Positions 2,891 through 16,600 of a DNA stretch of 27,701 nucleotides are shown in pieces. The stretch covers positions 1 to 27,701 of IMG/VR virus record IMGVR_UViG_3300020042_003020, one strand, 5' to 3'. Position numbers and translations under genes: made by a program. Source of the DNA: a virus. Lineage: Duplodnaviria; Caudoviricetes. How positions within the stretch are numbered: position 1 is the first letter of the stretch; each line of letters opens with the position of its first letter. The notes beneath the pieces were generated by a model. That model made no database searches and was not told the origin of the DNA. It worked only from the letters and a program-made list of their open reading frames with translations.

Positions 2891-3026
2891 TCGGCAGTGG
2901 ATTATTTTTAATCAGCTTGGTGGTGCCGAGTGGCTACGTACCATCATCACCAAGAAAGCCCCGATGCCCAAGAAGTACTATGACGCACTACTACAGGAGA
3001 AACCAAATGATTCAAAGAGCCGATGA
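2835..3026 (+). CDS. Small putative DNA-binding protein (63 aa, ribbon-helix-helix-like)
   Basis: ATG 2835, MPRAKPPEPLIGRQIRMSDRQW...LGGAEWLR. Beta-strand plus two helices pattern. The function is an inference. Confidence 0.6.
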   Translation: MPRAKPPEPLIGRQIRMSDRQWIIFNQLGGAEWLRTIITKKAPMPKKYYDALLQEKPNDSKSR

Positions 3027-6316: not shown

Positions 6317-6982
6317 ATGACGCTAGCCCATTCATACTCAGGCATCAAAGACTACGAAGGTTGTCCACGCAGATACCACGAAGTCAAGATACTAAAAAAG
6401 TTCAAATCTAAAGACACTGAAGCAACCATGTACGGCACTGCCGTACACAAAGCATTTGAAGATTACATCCGTGATAAAACACCACTTCCGGCAAGTTATA
6501 CAAACTACAAATCATTTGTGGAACCCCTCGCCAATTTCAAAGGCGACGTACGATGCGAAGAGAAGCTTGGCATCCGAGCAGACTTTACCCCCTGCGGGTT
6601 CTTTGACAAAGATGTATGGTTCCGAGGCATCCCCGACTATCTTGCAATCAACCACGACAAGGGAATTGCAAGGGTAGCCGACTATAAGACCGGCAAGTCA
6701 AGTAGGTACGCAGACAGCGCTCAATTAGAACTAATGGCAGCTATGGTAATGATTCACCATCCCAACGTACATACCGTTAAAGGGGCACTGCTGTTTGTTG
6801 TAGTTGGCGACATTATTAAGTCTGAGTACACTCGGAAACAATTGCCTGAAATCCTGTCTAAATGGGCTGGCAGGGCTAGTGCAATCGAAGCAGCGGTGGT
6901 GCATGGGGTATGGAACCCTAAAAGCTCTGCCCTGTGCAAGTTCTGCCCAGTTACTACATGTGAGAATCACAATGGCAACTAA
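6317..6982 (+). CDS. Cas4/RecB-like PD-(D/E)xK exonuclease (221 aa)
   Basis: HSYS...CPRRY N-terminus, GIPD...DYKTGK, QLELMA, and C-terminal CKFCPVTTC (4-Cys Fe-S staple). Start reassigned to ATG 6317. Confidence 0.88.
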   Translation: MTLAHSYSGIKDYEGCPRRYHEVKILKKFKSKDTEATMYGTAVHKAFEDYIRDKTPLPASYTNYKSFVEPLANFKGDVRCEEKLGIRADFTPCGFFDKDVWFRGIPDYLAINHDKGIARVADYKTGKSSRYADSAQLELMAAMVMIHHPNVHTVKGALLFVVVGDIIKSEYTRKQLPEILSKWAGRASAIEAAVVHGVWNPKSSALCKFCPVTTCENHNGN

Positions 6983-7256
6983 ACGCAATTATGCTGCTGA
7001 GTATAAAAACTATCAGGGCACACCAAAACAACTCGCTGCCCAGTCCGAGAGGCACAAGGCTAGACGGGCATACGAGAAGGCTAATGGCACTCTACCTGAC
7101 GATGTAGACGTAGACCACAAGAAGGCTATGTCCAAGGGCGGTACGTCTAAGTTAAGCAACCTCCGTGCCTCACCGCAATCGGAAAACACTAGCTTCTCCC
7201 GCACTAAATCTGGTGCGTTAAAGTCACAAATTTCTAAGCGAGAGCGTAAAAAGTAA
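6972..7256 (+). CDS. Small HNH endonuclease-family protein (94 aa)
   Basis: DVDHKKAMSKGG...SNLR...EN motif. ATG 6972 overlaps the upstream gene. Confidence 0.8.
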   Translation: MATKRNYAAEYKNYQGTPKQLAAQSERHKARRAYEKANGTLPDDVDVDHKKAMSKGGTSKLSNLRASPQSENTSFSRTKSGALKSQISKRERKK

Positions 7257-7270
7257 TGTAAGATAAAACC

Positions 7271-7361
7271 ACTCGGTGCCTGCAGTTGCTGAGTTGTTTC
7301 GTTGGATTTTCTCCTCCCCAGTAATGGGTTTGCCCAGTAGCAGTGCTACTGGGCTATTTTT
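7271..7361 (+). ncRNA. Candidate anti-Shine-Dalgarno small RNA (~91 nt)
   Basis: -10-like TAAGAT at 7259-7264. 5' hairpin 7271-7294, unpaired UUUUCUCCUCC 7307-7317, GUAA tetraloop mini-hairpin 7317-7328, intrinsic terminator 7332-7361. It occupies the largest intergenic gap in the window. Confidence 0.5.
7332..7361 (+). terminator. Rho-independent terminator
   Basis: Perfect 10-bp stem GCCCAGTAGC-agt-GCTACTGGGC followed by TATTTTT. Confidence 0.8.
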
Positions 7362-7382
7362 GTCACCTCTATTCAATTTATT

Positions 7383-8936
7383 ATGCAAATCATTGACAAC
7401 AAAGCATTGGTGTTTAATACACGCAAAGCAAATCAAATCACTTCAATCATTCCTAAGAGCAAGGTGCTTGAGAACAACGGAGACGTTGATCAAGTCATTG
7501 TTAACTGGGGCTTTGACGAAGTGCAACTGTTACGCAATCTAGGTATACGTGATGTGCCTAGTCCCATACTGGGACGCTACCAGTGGCCCGGAATGTTTAC
7601 GCCGTTCGATCATCAGCGTACTACTGCAGAGTTCCTCACACTCCATCCACGTTGCTTTGTGTTCAACGAAGCAGGCACAGGCAAGACCAGTGCAGCAGCT
7701 TGGGCTGCGGATTATTTGATGCAACAAGGCAGAGTCAAGCGTGTGCTTGTTGTGTGCCCAGTGTCCATTATGGACACCGCATGGCGATCTGATTTATTCA
7801 AGACAGTCATGCACCGAACCGTTGCAATTGCGCAGGGGTCACGCACACAAAGACAGAAGGTCATTGATGGTGATTACGAGTTTGTCATCATTAACTTTGA
7901 TGGTGTGAAGGTCGTCAATAAAGAGTTGATAGCCGGTGGATTTGATCTCATCATTGTGGACGAAGCTAACGCAGTTAAGAGCGTGACTACTGATAGGTGG
8001 AAGTGCCTTGCAACCCTGATTAAACCTGCTACACGCCTATGGATGATGACGGGTACGCCTGCCTCGCAGTCACCGCTTGACGCATACGGTTTGGCTAAAC
8101 TTGTGGCACCTGATGCGGTGCCTAGATTCTTTGGTGCGTTCCGTGACAAGGTGATGCTTAAACTTACGCAGTACAAGTGGGTGCCGAGACAAGACGCACA
8201 ACAGATCGTTCACCAAGTATTGCAACCTGCCATTAGATACACAAAGCTAGAGTGCTTGGACTTGCCTGACTTGTTGTACTCGACTCGTGAAGTTCCGTTG
8301 ACTGCTCAGCAGACCAAATACTACGACGCACTCAAAAAACAAATGATGACTATTGCAGCAGGCTCAGAAATCACAGCGGTGAATGCGGCAGCAATGCTTA
8401 ACAAACTTTTGCAAGTTGCGCAAGGTGCGGTTTATACCGATGACGGAGGTGTTGTTGAGTTTGACGTATCTAATCGCATGACTGAGTTACTGAATGTGAT
8501 TGAGCAAACTGACCATAAGGTATTGGTGTTTATCCCATATCGGCACACGCTTCAGATGGTTGAGAATACTCTACTCAAAGAAGGATACACAGTGCAGACA
8601 ATTCATGGCGGCGTTGCTTCTACACGCCGAGCAGACATCATCAAACAGTTTCAAACCGAAGACGACCCACGCATACTCCTGCTAGTACCACAAGCTACTG
8701 CACACGGTATCACGCTGACTCGTGCCGATCAAGTTGTGTGGTGGGGTCCAGTAGCGTCCACAGAAATCTATTTGCAAGCTAACTCCCGAGCACACCGTGC
8801 AGGGCAGGTAAATCACGTTACGGTTACACACCTACAAGGTAGCCCTGTCGAGCGGCGCGTGTATACCATGTTGCAAAATAAAATAGATTTACATCAAAGT
8901 TTAGTAGATTTATACAAACAAGAGCTTGACATGTAA
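7383..8936 (+). CDS. SNF2-family (SF2) DNA helicase (517 aa)
   Basis: Walker A NEAGTGKT, motif Ia VVCP, motif II DEAN, motif III TGTP, motif V GITLT, motif VI QANSRAHRAGQ. Confidence 0.93.
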   Translation: MQIIDNKALVFNTRKANQITSIIPKSKVLENNGDVDQVIVNWGFDEVQLLRNLGIRDVPSPILGRYQWPGMFTPFDHQRTTAEFLTLHPRCFVFNEAGTGKTSAAAWAADYLMQQGRVKRVLVVCPVSIMDTAWRSDLFKTVMHRTVAIAQGSRTQRQKVIDGDYEFVIINFDGVKVVNKELIAGGFDLIIVDEANAVKSVTTDRWKCLATLIKPATRLWMMTGTPASQSPLDAYGLAKLVAPDAVPRFFGAFRDKVMLKLTQYKWVPRQDAQQIVHQVLQPAIRYTKLECLDLPDLLYSTREVPLTAQQTKYYDALKKQMMTIAAGSEITAVNAAAMLNKLLQVAQGAVYTDDGGVVEFDVSNRMTELLNVIEQTDHKVLVFIPYRHTLQMVENTLLKEGYTVQTIHGGVASTRRADIIKQFQTEDDPRILLLVPQATAHGITLTRADQVVWWGPVASTEIYLQANSRAHRAGQVNHVTVTHLQGSPVERRVYTMLQNKIDLHQSLVDLYKQELDM

Positions 8937-8953
8937 ATTTGACAGTGTATAAT
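8926..8953 (+). promoter_or_regulatory. Consensus sigma70 promoter
   Basis: TTGACA (8926-8931), 16-nt spacer, TATAAT (8948-8953). AAGGAG RBS and ATG 8988 follow. Confidence 0.8.
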
Positions 8954-9397: not shown

Positions 9398-10288
9398 ATG
9401 AGTAACATGACACTTTTCAAATCCGGTTCCGTTATCCCTGACTATTTGCGTGAGGCTTCTGACGCTACTACCCGTGACATCGCAGGTAGCTCTGGCGGTA
9501 AGCAAATCTCAATCAAGGGCGGTGTGTGGCGTATGGTTGTAGGCGGTGAAGAAGTCGCCAAGAACGAAGAACGCGCCATGAACTTTGTGGTGATTGCATC
9601 TGGCAAAGGTGTGACCCGCACGTTCTATGCAGACAAATACGAAGAAGGCAAGGACATCAAGCCTGCCTGTTGGTCTGCCGAAGGCGTAGTGCCCAACGAA
9701 GAAGTGGCAAATCCACAAGCCAAGACGTGCGCTACCTGCCCACAGAACATCGAAGGCTCTGGTGATGGTAAGGCTCGTGCCTGCCGTTACAGTAAGCGTT
9801 TGGCTGTAGCTTTAGAGAACGACATTGGTGGCAACATCTATCGCCTGTCAGTACCTGCCAAGTCATACTTCGGTCGTGCTGAAGGTGAGAAGATGCCACT
9901 GCAAGCGTTTGGTAAGTTCTTGTCAGGACATGGTATTCCGATTACAGGCATCGTGACCGAAGCTCGCTTCGACACAGCCGAAGCAGTGCCCGTGTTGAAG
10001 TTCCGTGCTGTACGCCCCTTGTCGAAAGAAGAGTGGGAACTGGGTAAAGCACAGAGCCAAACAGAAGACGCTCGTCAAGCTATCGAGTTGAAGATGGTTC
10101 CATCTAAAGCTGAAGGCATGCCTGCGTTACCACAGTCGTTCAAGGAAGCCCCTGCTGCCGTCGAGAAAGCGGAAGAAGTGGCGGAGCCTGTCAAACGTGC
10201 CCCTACCAAAGCGAAGCCCGAAGCTCCCGCTGCAGCAAAGAACGTATCTGACATCTTGAGTGACTGGGCTACTGACGAAGATGCGTAA
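9398..10288 (+). CDS. Putative ssDNA-binding/annealing protein (296 aa)
   Basis: AGGA RBS. Beta-rich core with Cys residues (ACWS, CATCPQN, ACR), Ala/Pro/Glu linker, acidic aromatic tail (ILSDWATDEDA). Function inferred from tail and context. Confidence 0.65.
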   Translation: MSNMTLFKSGSVIPDYLREASDATTRDIAGSSGGKQISIKGGVWRMVVGGEEVAKNEERAMNFVVIASGKGVTRTFYADKYEEGKDIKPACWSAEGVVPNEEVANPQAKTCATCPQNIEGSGDGKARACRYSKRLAVALENDIGGNIYRLSVPAKSYFGRAEGEKMPLQAFGKFLSGHGIPITGIVTEARFDTAEAVPVLKFRAVRPLSKEEWELGKAQSQTEDARQAIELKMVPSKAEGMPALPQSFKEAPAAVEKAEEVAEPVKRAPTKAKPEAPAAAKNVSDILSDWATDEDA

Positions 10289-10529
10289 TAGACCACGGGG
10301 GCATGACACCCTCTTCATTCAGAAAGTTGAAGATGCAGACCAGAGGCCGATTGTTATGCAGTTGGCTGACGTTTGCATCAACAAAGGTACACCAATTACC
10401 GAGATAGCGCTAATGTTTGGCGTGACTCGTGCGAGTGTGTACAACTGGCTGACTGGTAGATCAGTGCCACGCGCTCGTTATCAGGCAGTAATGCCTAAAG
10501 TTATTGCACGTCTTTCAAAACGTAAGTAA
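10281..10529 (+). CDS. Cro/CI-like helix-turn-helix protein (82 aa)
   Basis: ITEIALMFGVTRASVYNWLTGRSVP is a typical HTH_3/XRE pattern. Confidence 0.82.
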   Translation: MRNRPRGHDTLFIQKVEDADQRPIVMQLADVCINKGTPITEIALMFGVTRASVYNWLTGRSVPRARYQAVMPKVIARLSKRK

Positions 10530-10535
10530 CCCTCG

Positions 10536-10570
10536 GGGGTAACAGGTAGCACTGTTGCCCCTATTTTTTT
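10536..10570 (+). terminator. Rho-independent terminator between the HTH and primase genes
   Basis: Stem GGGGTAACAG-gtagca-CTGTTGCCCC (one G.U pair) followed by TATTTTTTT. Confidence 0.8.
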
Positions 10571-10592
10571 CTCCTCAACCCAGTGAGGTTCT

Positions 10593-13439
10593 GTGACTGA
10601 CTTTCTCAAATCCGTTTTACCAACGCAGGGCTTGTATTGCACTGTGGGTATTCGGGCAAACGCTGTCAAGCAATCGTTCCAAGCGACGATTGAAGACGTG
10701 GAGGCAGTCGGCTCAGGTATGGATTCCCAAGGCGTGGACGCGTATTTTGCGCTTGCCACATTTGAAGATGACTCAGGTCGTAAGGCGGACAACGCCATCT
10801 TTCTGCGGTCGTTCTTTCTAGACTTAGATTGCGGTACAGGCAAGCCCTACGCTGACCAAGCTACCGCTGCCCAAGCACTATCCATATTTGTTGCTGACAC
10901 AAAGCTCCCAAGTCCAACGCTTGTTAACTCAGGTGGTGGTCTCCACGTCTATTGGCCTTTGACCGAAGACGTGCCTGTATCCGAGTGGATACGACACGCA
11001 AAATCACTGAAGCGCTTGTGCGCTCAAAAGAAATTATTTGCTGATCCCGCCGTAACTGCAGATGCTGCACGTATCCTGCGCATACCCGGCACCCATAACT
11101 TTAAGAACGCAACCTCGAGACCTGTACAGATTATTGCAATGGGTACGCCTGTATCCCTTGTTGAGTTTATTGAGCCGTTACCCGCCCCTGCAATGGACTT
11201 GAGCGCAGCCAAACAGTTTGGCATGGACGAGACGTCTAAAGATATTGGTGGTACTGGCGACTACCCTAAGTGTTCGTTTAAGCGTATAGCTATCCGTAGC
11301 ATTAACGGTAACGGCTGTGCGCAGATGAAACACGCCATTGAACAAGCCCATACGCTAGAAGAACCGTTGTGGAGGGCTGCGCTATCTATTGCGGTGCGGT
11401 GCGAAGACGGCCCTACGGCTATCCATACGCTGTCCAAACGGCATCCCGACTACTCGGCAGAGGCGACTGAATCCAAAGCTGCTGAGACCAAAGGTCCGTA
11501 TACCTGCGAGTGGTATCGGGACAACAACTCATCTCTGTGCGAGGGTTGCCCACAGAAGATTTCTACGCCAATTCTGTTGGGTAAGTTTGTAGAGCAGGCA
11601 GTTGTCGAGGATGACCAGTACATCATTGAGACGCCCAAAGACGAGACAGCACCGGCACTCACCATGTCGATACCGGCATACCCGTTCCCATACTTTCGTG
11701 GCGTTAACGGCGGTGTGTACAAGAAAGAACGTACCCCTGATGGTGAGGAGAAGGACGTTGAAATTTACCCATACGACCTATACCTGACAGAGAGGTTCTT
11801 TGACTCTGACCAGTACGGCAACGGTGAAGGCGAGATGGTGGGTCTAAACTTGCACATGAAGCAAGACGGTGTTCGCAGGTTCTACGCCCCCGTGACTACG
11901 CTGTTCACCAAAGATAAAATGCGCGACTTACTGATTAAAAACGGTGTGGTCGCTTACGGAAAACACTTGGATGCAATCATGGCTTACTTTGCTTCGACAC
12001 TACGCAAACTGCAATCGCAGTACGCTGCGAACAAAACACGCAGCCAAATGGGATGGACACCTGACGGGCTTGGCTTTGTCGTAGGTGAGTTGGAATACAC
12101 GGCAGCGGGTACTAAGCTGGCACCGCCTTCAAGCGGTACACGGGAGTTGGCTGAGCAGTTCAAGCCAACCGGCACATTGGAAGAGTGGAGCAAGATCGCT
12201 AACTTCTATAACAGGCCCGGACTCGAGACGCATGCACTGGCTTTGTTTTTTGGTTTTGGTTCGCCCTTGCTAAAGTTTATTGGCCCCAAACAGAACGTGA
12301 AGGGTGCGTTGATTCACCTTAAACACAACGGCTCAGGCTCAGGCAAGTCTACGGCTCAGATGGTAGTCAACTCTATCTTTGGTAATCCTGACACCTTGTT
12401 GTTAAAGCAAGACGACACGTACGCTTCCAAGATGCACTTGCTTGGCATGATGAACAGTATTGCGTTTACTGTGGACGAGATCACCAACGAGAAGCCTGAG
12501 ATTCTGTCCGACTACGCTTATGGGTTTACCTCAGGGCGGGGCAAGCACCGTATGGAAGCGCAGAGTAACAAACTGCGTGTGAACAACACAACATGGTGTA
12601 ACTTTACTTTGTCGTCAGGCAACGCCTCTGTTGTGGATGCCCTGCAAAATCTTAAAAGTACGGCAGATGGTGAGCTTCGTCGGGTGCTTGAGATTGCGTT
12701 TCACGCATACACAGGCTCGCCCAAAGCTGAGATTGATGAAACGTTCGGCAAGCTCAGTACTAACTACGGCTTGGCGGGTCCAATTTACGTTCAGTACATC
12801 ATTGACAACCACGACCATGTGATGAAGCTGCTTGCTGATATGCAAGCCAAGGTTGACAAGGCTCTGAACCTAGACCAGACCGACCGTTTCTATTCTTGCT
12901 TGCTGACATGTGCCTTTGTGGGTGCGTTGATTGCAACTAAGCTTGGGCTGATTAACATCGACATTACACGTATATATCAGTTTGCGTTGGGAGTTGTGCG
13001 GGAGTCAATTGCGTCTAACATGTCTAGCGTTGGCAACCCAATGACTGTGGCTCAGGAAACTCTGGGTGCATTCATCAACGAGAACGTTAACAACGCAATG
13101 GTAGCGGCATATACACCCAAGGGCGGCTTGCCTGAGAGAGCGGCTCTGTCACCAAAGGGCAAGTTGGTTATGCGGTATGACCCTGACACTAGAACACTGG
13201 CTATTCCTGTGGCTGAGTTACGCAAGTACTTTACTAGCAGGCAAGTGGACGTTCGGGATAGCTTGGCACGGTTGACCACTGCAGGGTATCTCAAGCATGG
13301 TGGTAAGTCACATCCCACTCGTATTGGTGCGGGAGCCGTAGGGGGGCTTAGCGGTATTGCAGTGCGCTGCTACATCTTTGATGGAGACGTAATTGGCATC
13401 GACGAAACGGCGTTTGCGCAAGCAGAAAACAGCGCTTAA
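10593..13439 (+). CDS. Primase-helicase: RepB-like AEP primase, Cys-rich linker domain, DUF927/P-loop helicase (948 aa)
   Basis: FLDLDCG, VNSGGGLHVYW and ARILRIPGTHN primase motifs. QMGW, Walker A GSGSGKST, Walker B TVDEIT. GTG start with GAGG RBS. Confidence 0.88.
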   Translation: MTDFLKSVLPTQGLYCTVGIRANAVKQSFQATIEDVEAVGSGMDSQGVDAYFALATFEDDSGRKADNAIFLRSFFLDLDCGTGKPYADQATAAQALSIFVADTKLPSPTLVNSGGGLHVYWPLTEDVPVSEWIRHAKSLKRLCAQKKLFADPAVTADAARILRIPGTHNFKNATSRPVQIIAMGTPVSLVEFIEPLPAPAMDLSAAKQFGMDETSKDIGGTGDYPKCSFKRIAIRSINGNGCAQMKHAIEQAHTLEEPLWRAALSIAVRCEDGPTAIHTLSKRHPDYSAEATESKAAETKGPYTCEWYRDNNSSLCEGCPQKISTPILLGKFVEQAVVEDDQYIIETPKDETAPALTMSIPAYPFPYFRGVNGGVYKKERTPDGEEKDVEIYPYDLYLTERFFDSDQYGNGEGEMVGLNLHMKQDGVRRFYAPVTTLFTKDKMRDLLIKNGVVAYGKHLDAIMAYFASTLRKLQSQYAANKTRSQMGWTPDGLGFVVGELEYTAAGTKLAPPSSGTRELAEQFKPTGTLEEWSKIANFYNRPGLETHALALFFGFGSPLLKFIGPKQNVKGALIHLKHNGSGSGKSTAQMVVNSIFGNPDTLLLKQDDTYASKMHLLGMMNSIAFTVDEITNEKPEILSDYAYGFTSGRGKHRMEAQSNKLRVNNTTWCNFTLSSGNASVVDALQNLKSTADGELRRVLEIAFHAYTGSPKAEIDETFGKLSTNYGLAGPIYVQYIIDNHDHVMKLLADMQAKVDKALNLDQTDRFYSCLLTCAFVGALIATKLGLINIDITRIYQFALGVVRESIASNMSSVGNPMTVAQETLGAFINENVNNAMVAAYTPKGGLPERAALSPKGKLVMRYDPDTRTLAIPVAELRKYFTSRQVDVRDSLARLTTAGYLKHGGKSHPTRIGAGAVGGLSGIAVRCYIFDGDVIGIDETAFAQAENSA

Positions 13440-13674: not shown

Positions 13675-16600
13675 CGTTGAACCTTGCGTAGTTCTGTCTT
13701 AGCTTCTCGCACCCACTGTACGTATTCCAACTCTGTCCGCTTAAGTTCTTTAAGGTCAGCTTCGCGGTCTTCTTTACTCATGTCGGCAGCGCCTTCGGGA
13801 CTATTTAAATACTTGCGATACGCACGAGTGCGTTCCAGTTGCTCAAGCGTAGAGTTAATCATACCTTCTAGCTCAAGCTCGGCCTCGTGTTCTACAACGT
13901 ATTTCTCTGCCCGATCAAGGTCAGTTTTTATCAACTCGTTTAGCGTAGTGTTGGCTTTGCCGACCTTCTCGCGCTCTTCGTAGAACTCAGTCATGCGTCG
14001 TGTGCCAACTGGGTCATACAAGTAGTTGCTGAACAGTGCGTACTTGTGCAGTGGGCGGTCGACTCGCGTTGGGTTGAGTAAGCTGTCCGTCACCATGGTA
14101 ACCATAGCAGCAGTTGAACCGAAGTAACCACGCAGTGCGTTATCAATCATGATTGGGGAAACTTCAACACCAATCTCATCACGGCTAAACACCGCAATAG
14201 CTTTTGCAAGCTCGGAGGTTTGGTCAGTCTTACGCATGCTTGGGTCCATTGCCCTGTGGTGATAGCCCTCTAAGTCTTTGCCAGTCAAGAATGACTTGTT
14301 AGCCCATGCTTCAATCACCGGTTTGATAGCTTGCGGTATTGGAACGGCGCGGCCCAAGTATTGCTCAAACATGTAGTTTAGCGTTGTGCGCACGGCTTCA
14401 AATGCCGTCTGCTCTTCAGGCGTACCCTGACGGCGCATGTACTCTACGATACGCTCGGGGATGACTTTAAAGATAGCGCCTAGTTCGCCCGGAACTCCGA
14501 TCTTGTATCCGCCACCAAGAATCCAGTTGCTGTCCCGTGTACGCAAGTCCATCTCGTTGTAGTCTTCGTCATCATCGCCCTTACCCAACGCATACAGGGA
14601 ACTCAGCATCGTGACGGTAATTGCACGGCTATAGAACAGTTGTCGAGCTTTTGCGCGATCAACGGACGAGCTTGAGTCTTTGCCAGATGCAGCGCGGTAC
14701 AACACATCCATACCTTGAATGTAAGCATTAAAGAACGGAATAACCGTAACCATGTCAGTCACAAACTGGTTTGCGCCACGGCGACGAAAGTTAATAAACT
14801 CACGGGCGCGGGTCTGCGCCAACAATTCATCTTTGCTTTCATTCAAGGTTTGGTCGTAGATAGCTTTACGAACCGCCAAGTCAGATGCGCGGGTAATACC
14901 ATCTAATCTGTGAATTAGCGTTTCAAACATGCCACGCTTTTTGTAGCCTAAGTCTTTTAGCAGAGATGTTGCAGGCTTACCGGCTTCAAAGTCATACTCA
15001 CCGGTCAAACCAAGCCGCCCAAAGTCTTTAACTATCGGGTGCTGGATGCCACGCAGTTCTGCCAATGCCAGCTTGGGAAAGTTAGTCAAAGACATCCAAA
15101 CTAACGCGCCGGGATTTCTTACACCAGACGTCATGATGGCACGTTGTACGTCATCCATCACCTGCTTCAACGCAAATGGTGGCAGTACAGTAACTGTTTT
15201 ACGTAGGATGTTAGAGAACGCACCCATTGCCCGAATCCAACCCGCTTTAGGTGGGTTCAAATCTTTAAACGCCATGACGTCGTACTTGCTTGGCAACTCC
15301 CAGTACTGCATTTCACCGTTTACGTAAGCCCCCACACTGTTTGCAGTTGGCGATGCTCCAGTACGCAATTTTTTAGCTTGCCCAATATCTTCCAAACTGC
15401 GCAAAGTTATTAGAGTAGCGTCGGCTTTAAGCGTTTGCCCAACCATCCAACCAAGCGTGTTTAGGTAGTTATCGAACACATTGCCCACTGGACGTTCAAA
15501 CGAACCAACCAACTCAGGTAGTTTGCCAAGCTGTGCCAAACCTTTGCCACTAATCTTTTTAGCCTTATTAAAATTGGCAGCTACGGAATCAATTGTTTCA
15601 CGATCAAACGGCACATAGCCTACGACGTCACGCCACAACTTACCTTCTTCGGCAGACAACCTACCTACCGCAACCAAGTTGTCAACCATCGCTTTACGGG
15701 CTTCGTCCATGAGCTTGCTCATTTCCTTCAAGTCCGGGTCGGCGTTGTAAGCTCGCACCAACTGGTCAATCTCGTTGTCTTTTAAGTGAAGTGCAAAGTT
15801 TGTCATGCCCGTATTATTAGACCGGCGCATCTCATCTAAACGCACACCTTCTAATATGCGACTGGCAATTTGTGTAGCGCGTTCGCGGCTGTACCCGTTC
15901 TTCTCCGCATACTGGTCAATCAACGCATAGACTTCTGCAGGGGGGCGGACGCCTTCACCCATGCCGGACTTCCACAGACCGGTTGTTTTATCTTTGTACA
16001 ACGTACCAGTCTGGAAGTATTCCAACAGCATTTTGGTGTAGTCTTGCGCCTGACGGTATAGACCCATAGGATTAAGTTCACCCAGTGAGTTACGCACTGC
16101 GCCATCAAACTTCTCCCTCAGACGTTTTTCAATAGTGGCAGCAATGTCCGTTACTTGCGTACGGAACTTAGTCACGTAGCCAATGTCAGGATTGGATTGG
16201 ACACCTACAAGCAGTTTCTTTAACCCGGATTTGTCGTCGCGGTTTAGCGGCCCCATAGAGTCAATTAGCTGTTCGTCGCTAAACGATATGGAGAACTGTT
16301 GTTTTATCTCCTGCGAATTTTCCGGCAAGCTAATGTTTGGCGCTGTCTTAAAGTTTGCTGGGCCTGCTTTGTTTAAGAAGTCTGCAACAGATTTAGCGGG
16401 TGGATATTTACGGCTGGTAACAATAGCTACCAAGTCGCGCATCATCTGAGCAACTCTAGAGAAAAACTTATCTGCAATACTCAATGGCTTTTCGTTAGTC
16501 GTAGCCCAACGTGATACGTTGTCTGCAAACCATTCGCCAAATGAAATCCAATAAGACTCAAACTCTTCCATTGTGGCTGCAGCGGCATCCGCGTCGCCAT

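Follow-up and report, generated by a model that had tools for sequence, protein, structure and literature searches.

The largest gap between genes in this phage sequence, by inspection of the genes retained from its list of open reading frames, measures 126 nt and lies between a small HNH-like gene and a helicase gene. An earlier note had rightly picked it out as the largest and had placed in it a small RNA complementary to ribosome-binding sites. The question raised by the locus is whether such an RNA gene is present and, if so, against what it would be directed.

The window, i.e. the whole stretch of DNA analyzed, covers 27.7 kb of the genome of an uncultured phage, and no DNA-level match to it was found among GenBank phages. 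Its plus strand carries small genes together with genes for a family A DNA polymerase, a PD-(D/E)XK exonuclease, a 94-aa HNH-like protein, an SNF2 helicase and a primase, and its minus strand carries long genes. Complete relatives measure 60-68 kb, with terminase, portal and capsid genes on the minus strand and a pair of AAA ATPase and DUF2201 genes in the plus arm. Throughout, "early" denotes the plus arm upstream of the element and "late" the minus arm, as assigned from strand, gene content and annotation, with gene starts in the relatives called heuristically. The early arm is mostly missing from the window; a relative that is 99.86% identical over 7.7 kb has one. The HNH-like gene (6972..7256, plus strand) is kept in 80 relatives and had weak HNH matches, i.e. 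phrog_4578 (E 6e-4) and, below cut-off, PF13392; its profile found no match in prokaryote genomes. The SNF2-family helicase gene (7383..8936, plus strand) matched both PF00176 and PF00271 above cut-off, and its identity to the nearest helicases of cultured phages is about 40%. The HNH stop codon at 7254-7256 and the helicase ATG at 7383 were read directly.

A conserved element between the HNH-like and helicase genes

The components described in the earlier note were all recovered at the positions it gave, on the plus strand, and it was also right that a good -35 is absent, as no sigma-70 -35 was found upstream of the -10-like hexamer. This hexamer, TAAGAT (7259..7264), is a predicted promoter of the family pattern TAnnAT. 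It is followed by an 8-bp 5' hairpin with three G.U pairs, P1 (7271..7294), where the RNA is predicted to start, and by a linker (7295..7316) that forms the predicted pairing region, with CGU at 7300-7302 (anti-AUG) and UUCUCC at 7309-7314 (anti-GGAGAA). The last C of the CTCCTCC tract (7311-7317) sits in the stem of the subsequent mini-hairpin CCCA-GUAA-UGGG (7317..7328). A U-rich spacer, an intrinsic terminator with a 10-bp stem (7332-7354) and the tail TATTTTT (7355-7361), i.e. beginning UA, then make up a predicted Hfq-type module and the predicted 3' end (7329..7361). None of 200 shuffles was as stable as the fold of the element (z -3.57), and 7271-7361 alone gave a z of -3.46.

Gaps were collected from the 80 HNH relatives and from further helicase and pattern matches, yielding 63, then 67 and then 88 distinct elements. 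The 67- and 88-element sets were extracted with a pattern that requires hexamer and terminator, and the invariance of the hexamer, given below, is therefore quoted from the 63-element set. Covariation across the gaps of related phages, which the earlier note had proposed as a check, was found for both P1 and the terminator, where compensating changes keep the pairing. The sequence of P1 is fully different between lineages; in 24 short-type relatives all 6 pairs show double-sided changes and 94.3% of cells are paired, a value reached by none of 500 shuffles. Among 54 copies of the terminator, 99.8% of cells are paired, with double-sided changes in 5 of the 10 pairs. The first helix of the relatives begins 5-6 nt downstream of the hexamer, the lower value being a floor since the folds were started 5 nt after it. 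All 67 elements have at least two U within 4 nt before the terminator stem, consistent with an Hfq module as defined in the accessible text of PMC5362039 (U-rich stretch, hairpin and U tail). The GNRA mini-hairpin, which is present in the window as described earlier, turned out to be restricted to its subclade and is missing in the short-type relatives. A model of the 24 short-type copies detects the window copy at 30.2 bits (E 9e-4) and a single copy in each of 8 out of 10 whole phage genomes searched, with no significant match in distant relatives and none in four of the phages with the closest cultured helicases. At the gathering thresholds of Rfam nothing was found in the window or in 15 distant loci. 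Judged by these patterns of conservation, the HNH-helicase gap encodes a real, uncatalogued phage small-RNA family that is absent from Rfam, and the element very probably gives rise to a discrete transcript.

The corresponding gap of related phages seems to hold further RNAs that are not catalogued. In the distant relatives L121 (465-700), L122, L133, L144, L149, L156 and L160, the gap contains a different RNA, about 150-170 nt long, for which two pseudoknots are predicted and whose middle is UCC-rich; 97.8% of its cells are paired, with 5 double-sided pairs among the 7 sequences, the structure having been drawn from these same sequences. Another group (L100:3581-3812, L102, L106, L107, L108, L138, L140, L155 and L162) has a third RNA-like element with invariant AGG.ATGAGT and AACC..AT.A.T blocks, and neither of the two had an Rfam match in the members scanned. 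Just upstream of the helicase start of certain distant relatives (L116, L126, L133, L136, L142, L145, L148 and L151), a hairpin with a GA(C/G)AC-type loop precedes a GGAGA site and resembles a translational operator. One relative (L077:360-830) has a second HNH-like ORF inserted between terminator and helicase. Furthermore, two outgroup genomes, G183 (at about 15085-15190, with CAU before the seed) and G176 (at about 32190-32285), show a hairpin-UUCUCC-terminator arrangement after the primase gene, at the end of the replication arm; both were missed by the short-type model and are possible analogues at another site.

Seed of the element and start sites of the early genes

Sequence conservation in the linker concerns TCTCC, found in 50 of the 63 linkers (2.6 expected from shuffles), in 22 of 30 clusters (0.7 expected) and in 58 of 67 elements of the larger set. 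The earlier proposal of a CUCCUCC seed needs a correction in this respect: an anti-ribosome-binding-site seed is conserved and mostly open, but its core is UUCUCC(U), i.e. anti-GGAGAA, with TTCTCCT present in 42 and CTCCTCC in only 25 of the 63 linkers. Likewise, the tract is unpaired in most relatives (median unpaired probability 0.76, and at least 0.5 in 52 of 58), but in the window copy the linker is partly closed by a marginal 3-bp GGA/UCC pair, leaving UCUCC with a mean unpaired probability of 0.49. On the helicase tree, a quick one of 64 rows used only to show that the seed extends through the clade, about 5 seed changes were counted. A seed-like motif is preceded by CAT at a distance of 1-10 nt in 20 of 30 clusters, as against 2.6 expected, and by either CAT or CGT in 25 of 30 (7.3 expected), both counts being based on a list of seed variants chosen post hoc, after the data were viewed. 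Where CAU is replaced, CGU is the most frequent substitute (6 clusters), followed by CAC or CAA (4), and 3 clusters have none. Most relatives have CAU, and the CGU of the window pairs with AUG through a G.U wobble. Since the conserved seed usually follows CAU or CGU, the linker reads as the complement of GGAGAA-spacer-AUG. The RNA probably acts against ribosome-binding sites.

The choice of targets was analyzed with the genome as unit; of 36 sequences, the 22 with five or more early families were reduced to 12 clusters, with means taken over at most 10 families per genome. When own and foreign early start sites were compared, the residual pairing energy was -1.45 kcal/mol, with 11 of 12 lineages negative (p<5e-5) and one, L363, positive and against the trend; stricter clustering gave 9 out of 9 negative. 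A genome added later (-1.3) brought the total to 12 of 13, a second added genome having too few early families. For late genes the same comparison gave -0.18 kcal/mol (p 0.29, n=7), whereas the early genes of those same 7 genomes were negative in 7 out of 7 (p 1.5e-4), and the replication genes showed a weak signal (p 0.043). Pooled over 8 complete genomes, the values were -1.50 for early, -0.41 for replication and -0.20 kcal/mol for late genes. Swaps between nearest neighbors favored the own partner in 5 of 6 pairs, the sixth being reversed (+3.9). Shuffled start sites gave approximately zero, and the control probes were null, i.e. the reversed linker (p 0.19), the helicase leader (p 0.81), P1 (p 0.88) and a coding piece (p 0.88); 12 shuffled probes had a mean of -0.04 and a minimum of -0.38. 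Most of the signal is carried by the 5' part of the linker together with the seed (p 1e-4), and less by the 3' part (p 0.05). With folding included, early sites were bound more strongly than late ones in 8 out of 8 runs (p 3e-5 to 0.022). The class signal is modest (about 1.5 kcal/mol) and was found after single-target tests had failed.

Specific gene families and lineages add to this. The DUF2201 gene favors its own RNA (p<2e-4, 11 of 13) and so does the AAA ATPase gene (p 0.006), while 7 of 8 late families showed no own preference, the remaining one giving p 0.03. Lineage-specific flanks of the seed match lineage-specific early leaders in L492, G010, L412 and also L512, which lacks UCUCC. 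In the 99.86% identical relative, one early leader box occurs 9 times, in 7 cases leading directly into GGAGA, and when the window RNA was cofolded with two such leaders, the linker paired with GGAGAAA-N-AUG with all three hairpins intact. The suggestion in the earlier note of an early-to-middle switch is thus supported by a lineage-matched pairing between linker and early start sites that is absent in late genes, and we give roughly even odds to the small RNA being directed mainly at the early genes of the phage itself.

Near-palindromic boxes, in 3-14 repeats, were also observed in L600 (567-7620) and in the early arms of G001, G002, G003, G006, G007, G008, G010, G168 and G182. These boxes are lineage-specific, e.g. 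TATAACCTTATAA, TTTTAACCTTAAAA and TCTAA-N3/4-TTAGA, often lie directly before early ribosome-binding sites, and are possibly operators of the HTH protein encoded at 10281-10529 in the window.

No single target stood out across the family. The best single start site within 10 kb upstream was not bound better by the own RNA (p 0.27 for 34 phages, 0.09 for 16 clusters). By net binding, the best predicted partner in the window is the start site of the DUF3310 gene (AGGAGAAACCAAAUG, 2995..3012, plus strand), which at -16.9 kcal/mol ranked first among 24 early-arm start sites of the 99.86% identical relative. Strong pairing of this gene is found in the window and in G001, but it does not co-vary across the family (p 0.14 and 0.24). 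The exonuclease and VRR genes were rejected as targets, their signals being gone after clustering (p 0.24 each). The DUF7307 gene was the strongest of 14 families tested by cluster (p 5e-5 to 0.002 over cluster representatives, with one of 70 rows, L541, left out as it has no leader). As a general target it was rejected, with neighbor swaps at 18 of 34 and ranks of 32 out of 89 in the window and 205 out of 231 in G001; it is a possible target in some lineages. Before this gene (8988), a perfect TTGACA-16-TATAAT promoter is found at 8926-8953, and the corresponding gap in relatives often carries 60-900 nt of inserted sequence. The primase leader (10530-10593 in the window) contains a terminator-like hairpin, a U run and a CCUCA able to pair with its own UGAGG site; the hairpin recurs in several relatives and the Shine-Dalgarno pairing in some only.

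Known RNAs, the host and alternative explanations

The GGAGA motif is unevenly distributed in the phages, occurring in 44 of 143 early start sites, 6 of 164 late ones and 1 of 35 in the downstream replication genes. The leaders of the clade are nearly devoid of it in the helicase (0/65), the exonuclease (0/59), a 296-aa gene (0/52), the primase (0/44) and the polymerase (1/48). Any Shine-Dalgarno motif was seen in 3 of 65 helicase leaders of the clade, as compared with 25 of 54 in distant relatives, where GGAGA itself occurs in 15 of 54, the contrast in helicase-leader GGAGA between the two groups representing a single evolutionary event. Distant relatives without this RNA have GGAGA in 49 of 157 early vs. 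23 of 135 late start sites (p 0.006), and in 96 of 238 upstream ones. Late-gene GGAGA in seeded phages and in the outgroup compared at p 0.16.

With Rfam thresholds relaxed, the best resemblance was to RF02278, at 26.9 bits (E 0.0017, cut-off 50), followed by NmsRb (RF02877) at 21 bits (E 0.42, cut-off 52). RF02278, as defined here from Rfam and from the accessible portions of PMC5688073 and PMC4603805, is the betaproteobacterial family whose architecture the earlier note had recognized. The likeness holds as the best one in Rfam and extends to the CU-rich open anti-RBS stretch, but formal membership does not, as the score lies below the gathering cut-off. Relatives scored 22-35 bits (best 35.4 among 18 loci) and none of 5 phage genomes exceeded the cut-off, while true host members score 61-69 bits. 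Shared with ncS03, ncS05, ncS27 and ncS62 of this family, according to what could be consulted of PMC5688073 and PMC4603805, are the CU-rich open anti-RBS stretch, GGRUU before a GCCC-type terminator and a similar size. RF02278 RNAs differ in being double hairpins with the CU-rich stretch in the first hairpin loop, and in having several chromosomal copies in betaproteobacteria; the phage RNA is single copy per genome, carries its seed in the single-stranded linker that separates P1 from the terminator, and shows an extra 5' hairpin, an anti-AUG triplet and covariation with phage genes. A search of 151 genomes from the candidate host family gave a single strong match, to a phage contig, and no host match above 34.5 bits. 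NmsR-A/B of Neisseria (NgncR_162/163, RF02877) likewise combine a 5' hairpin, an open UC-rich anti-SD linker and a terminator and cover the SD of a set of mRNAs, but they are a host sibling pair with TCA-cycle targets, at least in the accessible sections of PMC5362039, whereas the phage RNA is single copy with predicted phage targets. The phage RNAs c4 (P1/P7), lambda PreS and VP882 VpdS are trans-acting sRNAs as well, and c4 blocks a phage RBS. As far as PMC12197685 could be consulted, they are RNAs of temperate phages directed at a single operon, a host gene or Hfq, whereas many early genes are predicted as targets here; no Rfam match of the element to c4, PreS or VpdS was found.

A pattern scan of prokaryote genomes gave 120 matches, mostly by chance, which included two phage contigs of the clade in bins and two host RNAs. 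The latter (L504 and L505, about 1495-1575) are RNA-like elements after a phasin-like gene in two betaproteobacterial bins, with 30-31 bits to RF02278 and a terminator nearly the same as that of the phage, a likeness that exists partly by construction since they were selected by the search pattern. Two bins hold contigs of the clade, one of Burkholderiaceae and the other of Aquiluna. A betaproteobacterial host is suggested by the style of the start sites and by the likeness to RF02278; helicase homologs and the accessible part of a Hi-C preprint pointed to no host.

These host-type features bear on the alternative that the same sRNA is directed chiefly at those host mRNAs whose start sites are of the GGAGA type, like NmsR and the Burkholderia double-hairpin RNAs, an alternative that we regard as rather unlikely. 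The match to early phage genes would then be indirect, since those genes copy the strong start-site style of the host. GGAGA-N3-8-ATG is 2.3 to 8 times as frequent as the reversed control in 5 out of 5 genomes (a Burkholderiaceae bin, a Burkholderiales bin and three of the first bin's family), and candidate host-type genomes have hundreds of GGAGA-N-ATG sites. Overexpression of ncS27 slows growth, according to the accessible text of PMC5688073, and RF02278 is the top resemblance of the phage RNA in Rfam. Because the GGAGA bias of early genes exists in outgroups too, host mRNAs may also be among the targets, and a host-specific start-site style may drive part of the covariation, as the early genes of the outgroup are GGAGA-rich and loss of UCUCC is accompanied by a small drop only (225/667 GGAGA in seeded vs. 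31/126 in unseeded phages, p 0.06). Against this, late genes share the same ribosomes yet show no own-partner signal, the lineage-specific flanks described above pair with lineage-specific early leaders, and the contigs of the clade sit in a Burkholderiaceae bin as well as an Aquiluna bin.

The RNA could also lack a promoter of its own and arise by processing of the HNH mRNA at its 3' end, as the earlier note had considered; this concerns its origin and is compatible with the other functions. The missing -35, the start of the hexamer 2 nt after the HNH stop and a terminator that also ends the upstream operon are in line with it. The hexamer, however, has T1, A2 and T6 in 63 out of 63 unique elements, with positions 3-4 varying freely; these are T-12, A-11 and T-7, which we take to be the three key -10 bases. 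Of 576 stop codons called in 11 genomes, only 10 are followed by this pattern, and most of these probably belong to the HNH genes themselves. In two distant members (L522 and L210), a TAnnnT hexamer moves relative to the stop and stays, by eye, about 5-6 nt before the hairpin. Because the three key bases are invariant while the middle ones vary, the RNA is more likely to have its own promoter than to be a processed 3'UTR, an origin that we consider improbable.

Similarly doubtful, and a shade more so, is a promoter-leader-attenuator that sets helicase dosage and leaves the short RNA as a by-product. In its favor, the 28 nt that separate the terminator from the helicase ATG contain no promoter-like site, the upper terminator stem is nearly invariant in sequence, and the tail begins with non-U bases in most copies. 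Attenuation is unlikely because a conserved antiterminator is absent: z averaged 0.00, with 4 of 67 elements below -2, and the pair probability of the terminator was never under 0.98. In addition, the AT-rich helicase leader (7362..7382) has no Shine-Dalgarno motif to sequester and shows no preference for its own RNA (p 0.90), and the conserved seed and its covariation with genes 6-14 kb away would be left unexplained.

That the RNA serves as a sponge or decoy, titrating Hfq or the anti-SD sRNAs of the host instead of pairing with mRNAs, seems very improbable. Such a role would suit the Hfq-type module of all elements and the RF02278 members found in each of 5 candidate host-type genomes, and VP882 VpdS competes for Hfq, as stated in the part of PMC12197685 that was available. 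Titration, however, predicts no covariation with early start sites, and the seed has the same sense as that of the host RNAs and therefore cannot pair with them.

Lastly, the RBS and ATG of a small minus-strand gene can hardly explain the pattern: the reverse complement reads AGGAGAA-N-ATG in many relatives, but the frames are split 13/8/7 with lengths of 4 to 180 aa and no common peptide in 28 clusters, the window has ACG at that site, and the hexamer, the U tail, the G.U pairs and P1, which is more stable on the plus strand in 38 of 48 clusters, fit the plus strand.

A possible class-wide shut-off of early genes

The reading that we prefer, with a probability of about 0.5, is that of an sRNA gene of about 90 nt (70-95 nt in the clade) with a -10-only promoter, whose product would block translation of the phage's own early genes. 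Because the exposed middle of the RNA matches the ribosome-binding sites and start codons of these genes, it would be likely to switch them off as infection proceeds. Transcription would start at the -10-only promoter after the early phase, and the linker would pair over the Shine-Dalgarno motif, the spacer and the AUG of the early genes, with a presumed dependence on host Hfq. The exonuclease, helicase and primase, being without GGAGA, would escape the silencing, and read-through of the terminator probably feeds the helicase.

In our assessment, the nearest functional phage precedent for such an early shut-off is the protein-based RegB/RegA of T4. In the accessible text of PMC3014915, early mRNAs are cut by the endoribonuclease RegB at GGAG within their Shine-Dalgarno sites, and the repressor RegA covers the AUG region. 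The likeness is that of a class-wide shut-off of early mRNAs through GGAG motifs or occlusion of the AUG region; RegB and RegA, however, are proteins with shown activity, while that of the phage RNA is predicted and there is no sequence relation. As far as PMC12197685 could be consulted, most phage small RNAs with a described function belong to temperate phages. No description of an RNA like the present one was found in the literature searched, mostly papers accessible without subscription.

At somewhat under even odds, these apparently lytic and widespread phages may thus use one RNA to mask the SD and start codon of a whole class of genes with which it co-evolves, the replication genes having shed the motif, as an RNA counterpart of T4 RegB/RegA. 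Natural leader variants already provide matched and mismatched pairs with the RNA. How early genes are shut off in phages without RegB- or RegA-like proteins is largely an open question. If the proposed role is true, the element would constitute a new RNA family absent from Rfam, and phage gene expression in this abundant uncultured group would be timed, for a whole class of genes, by a base-pairing RNA.
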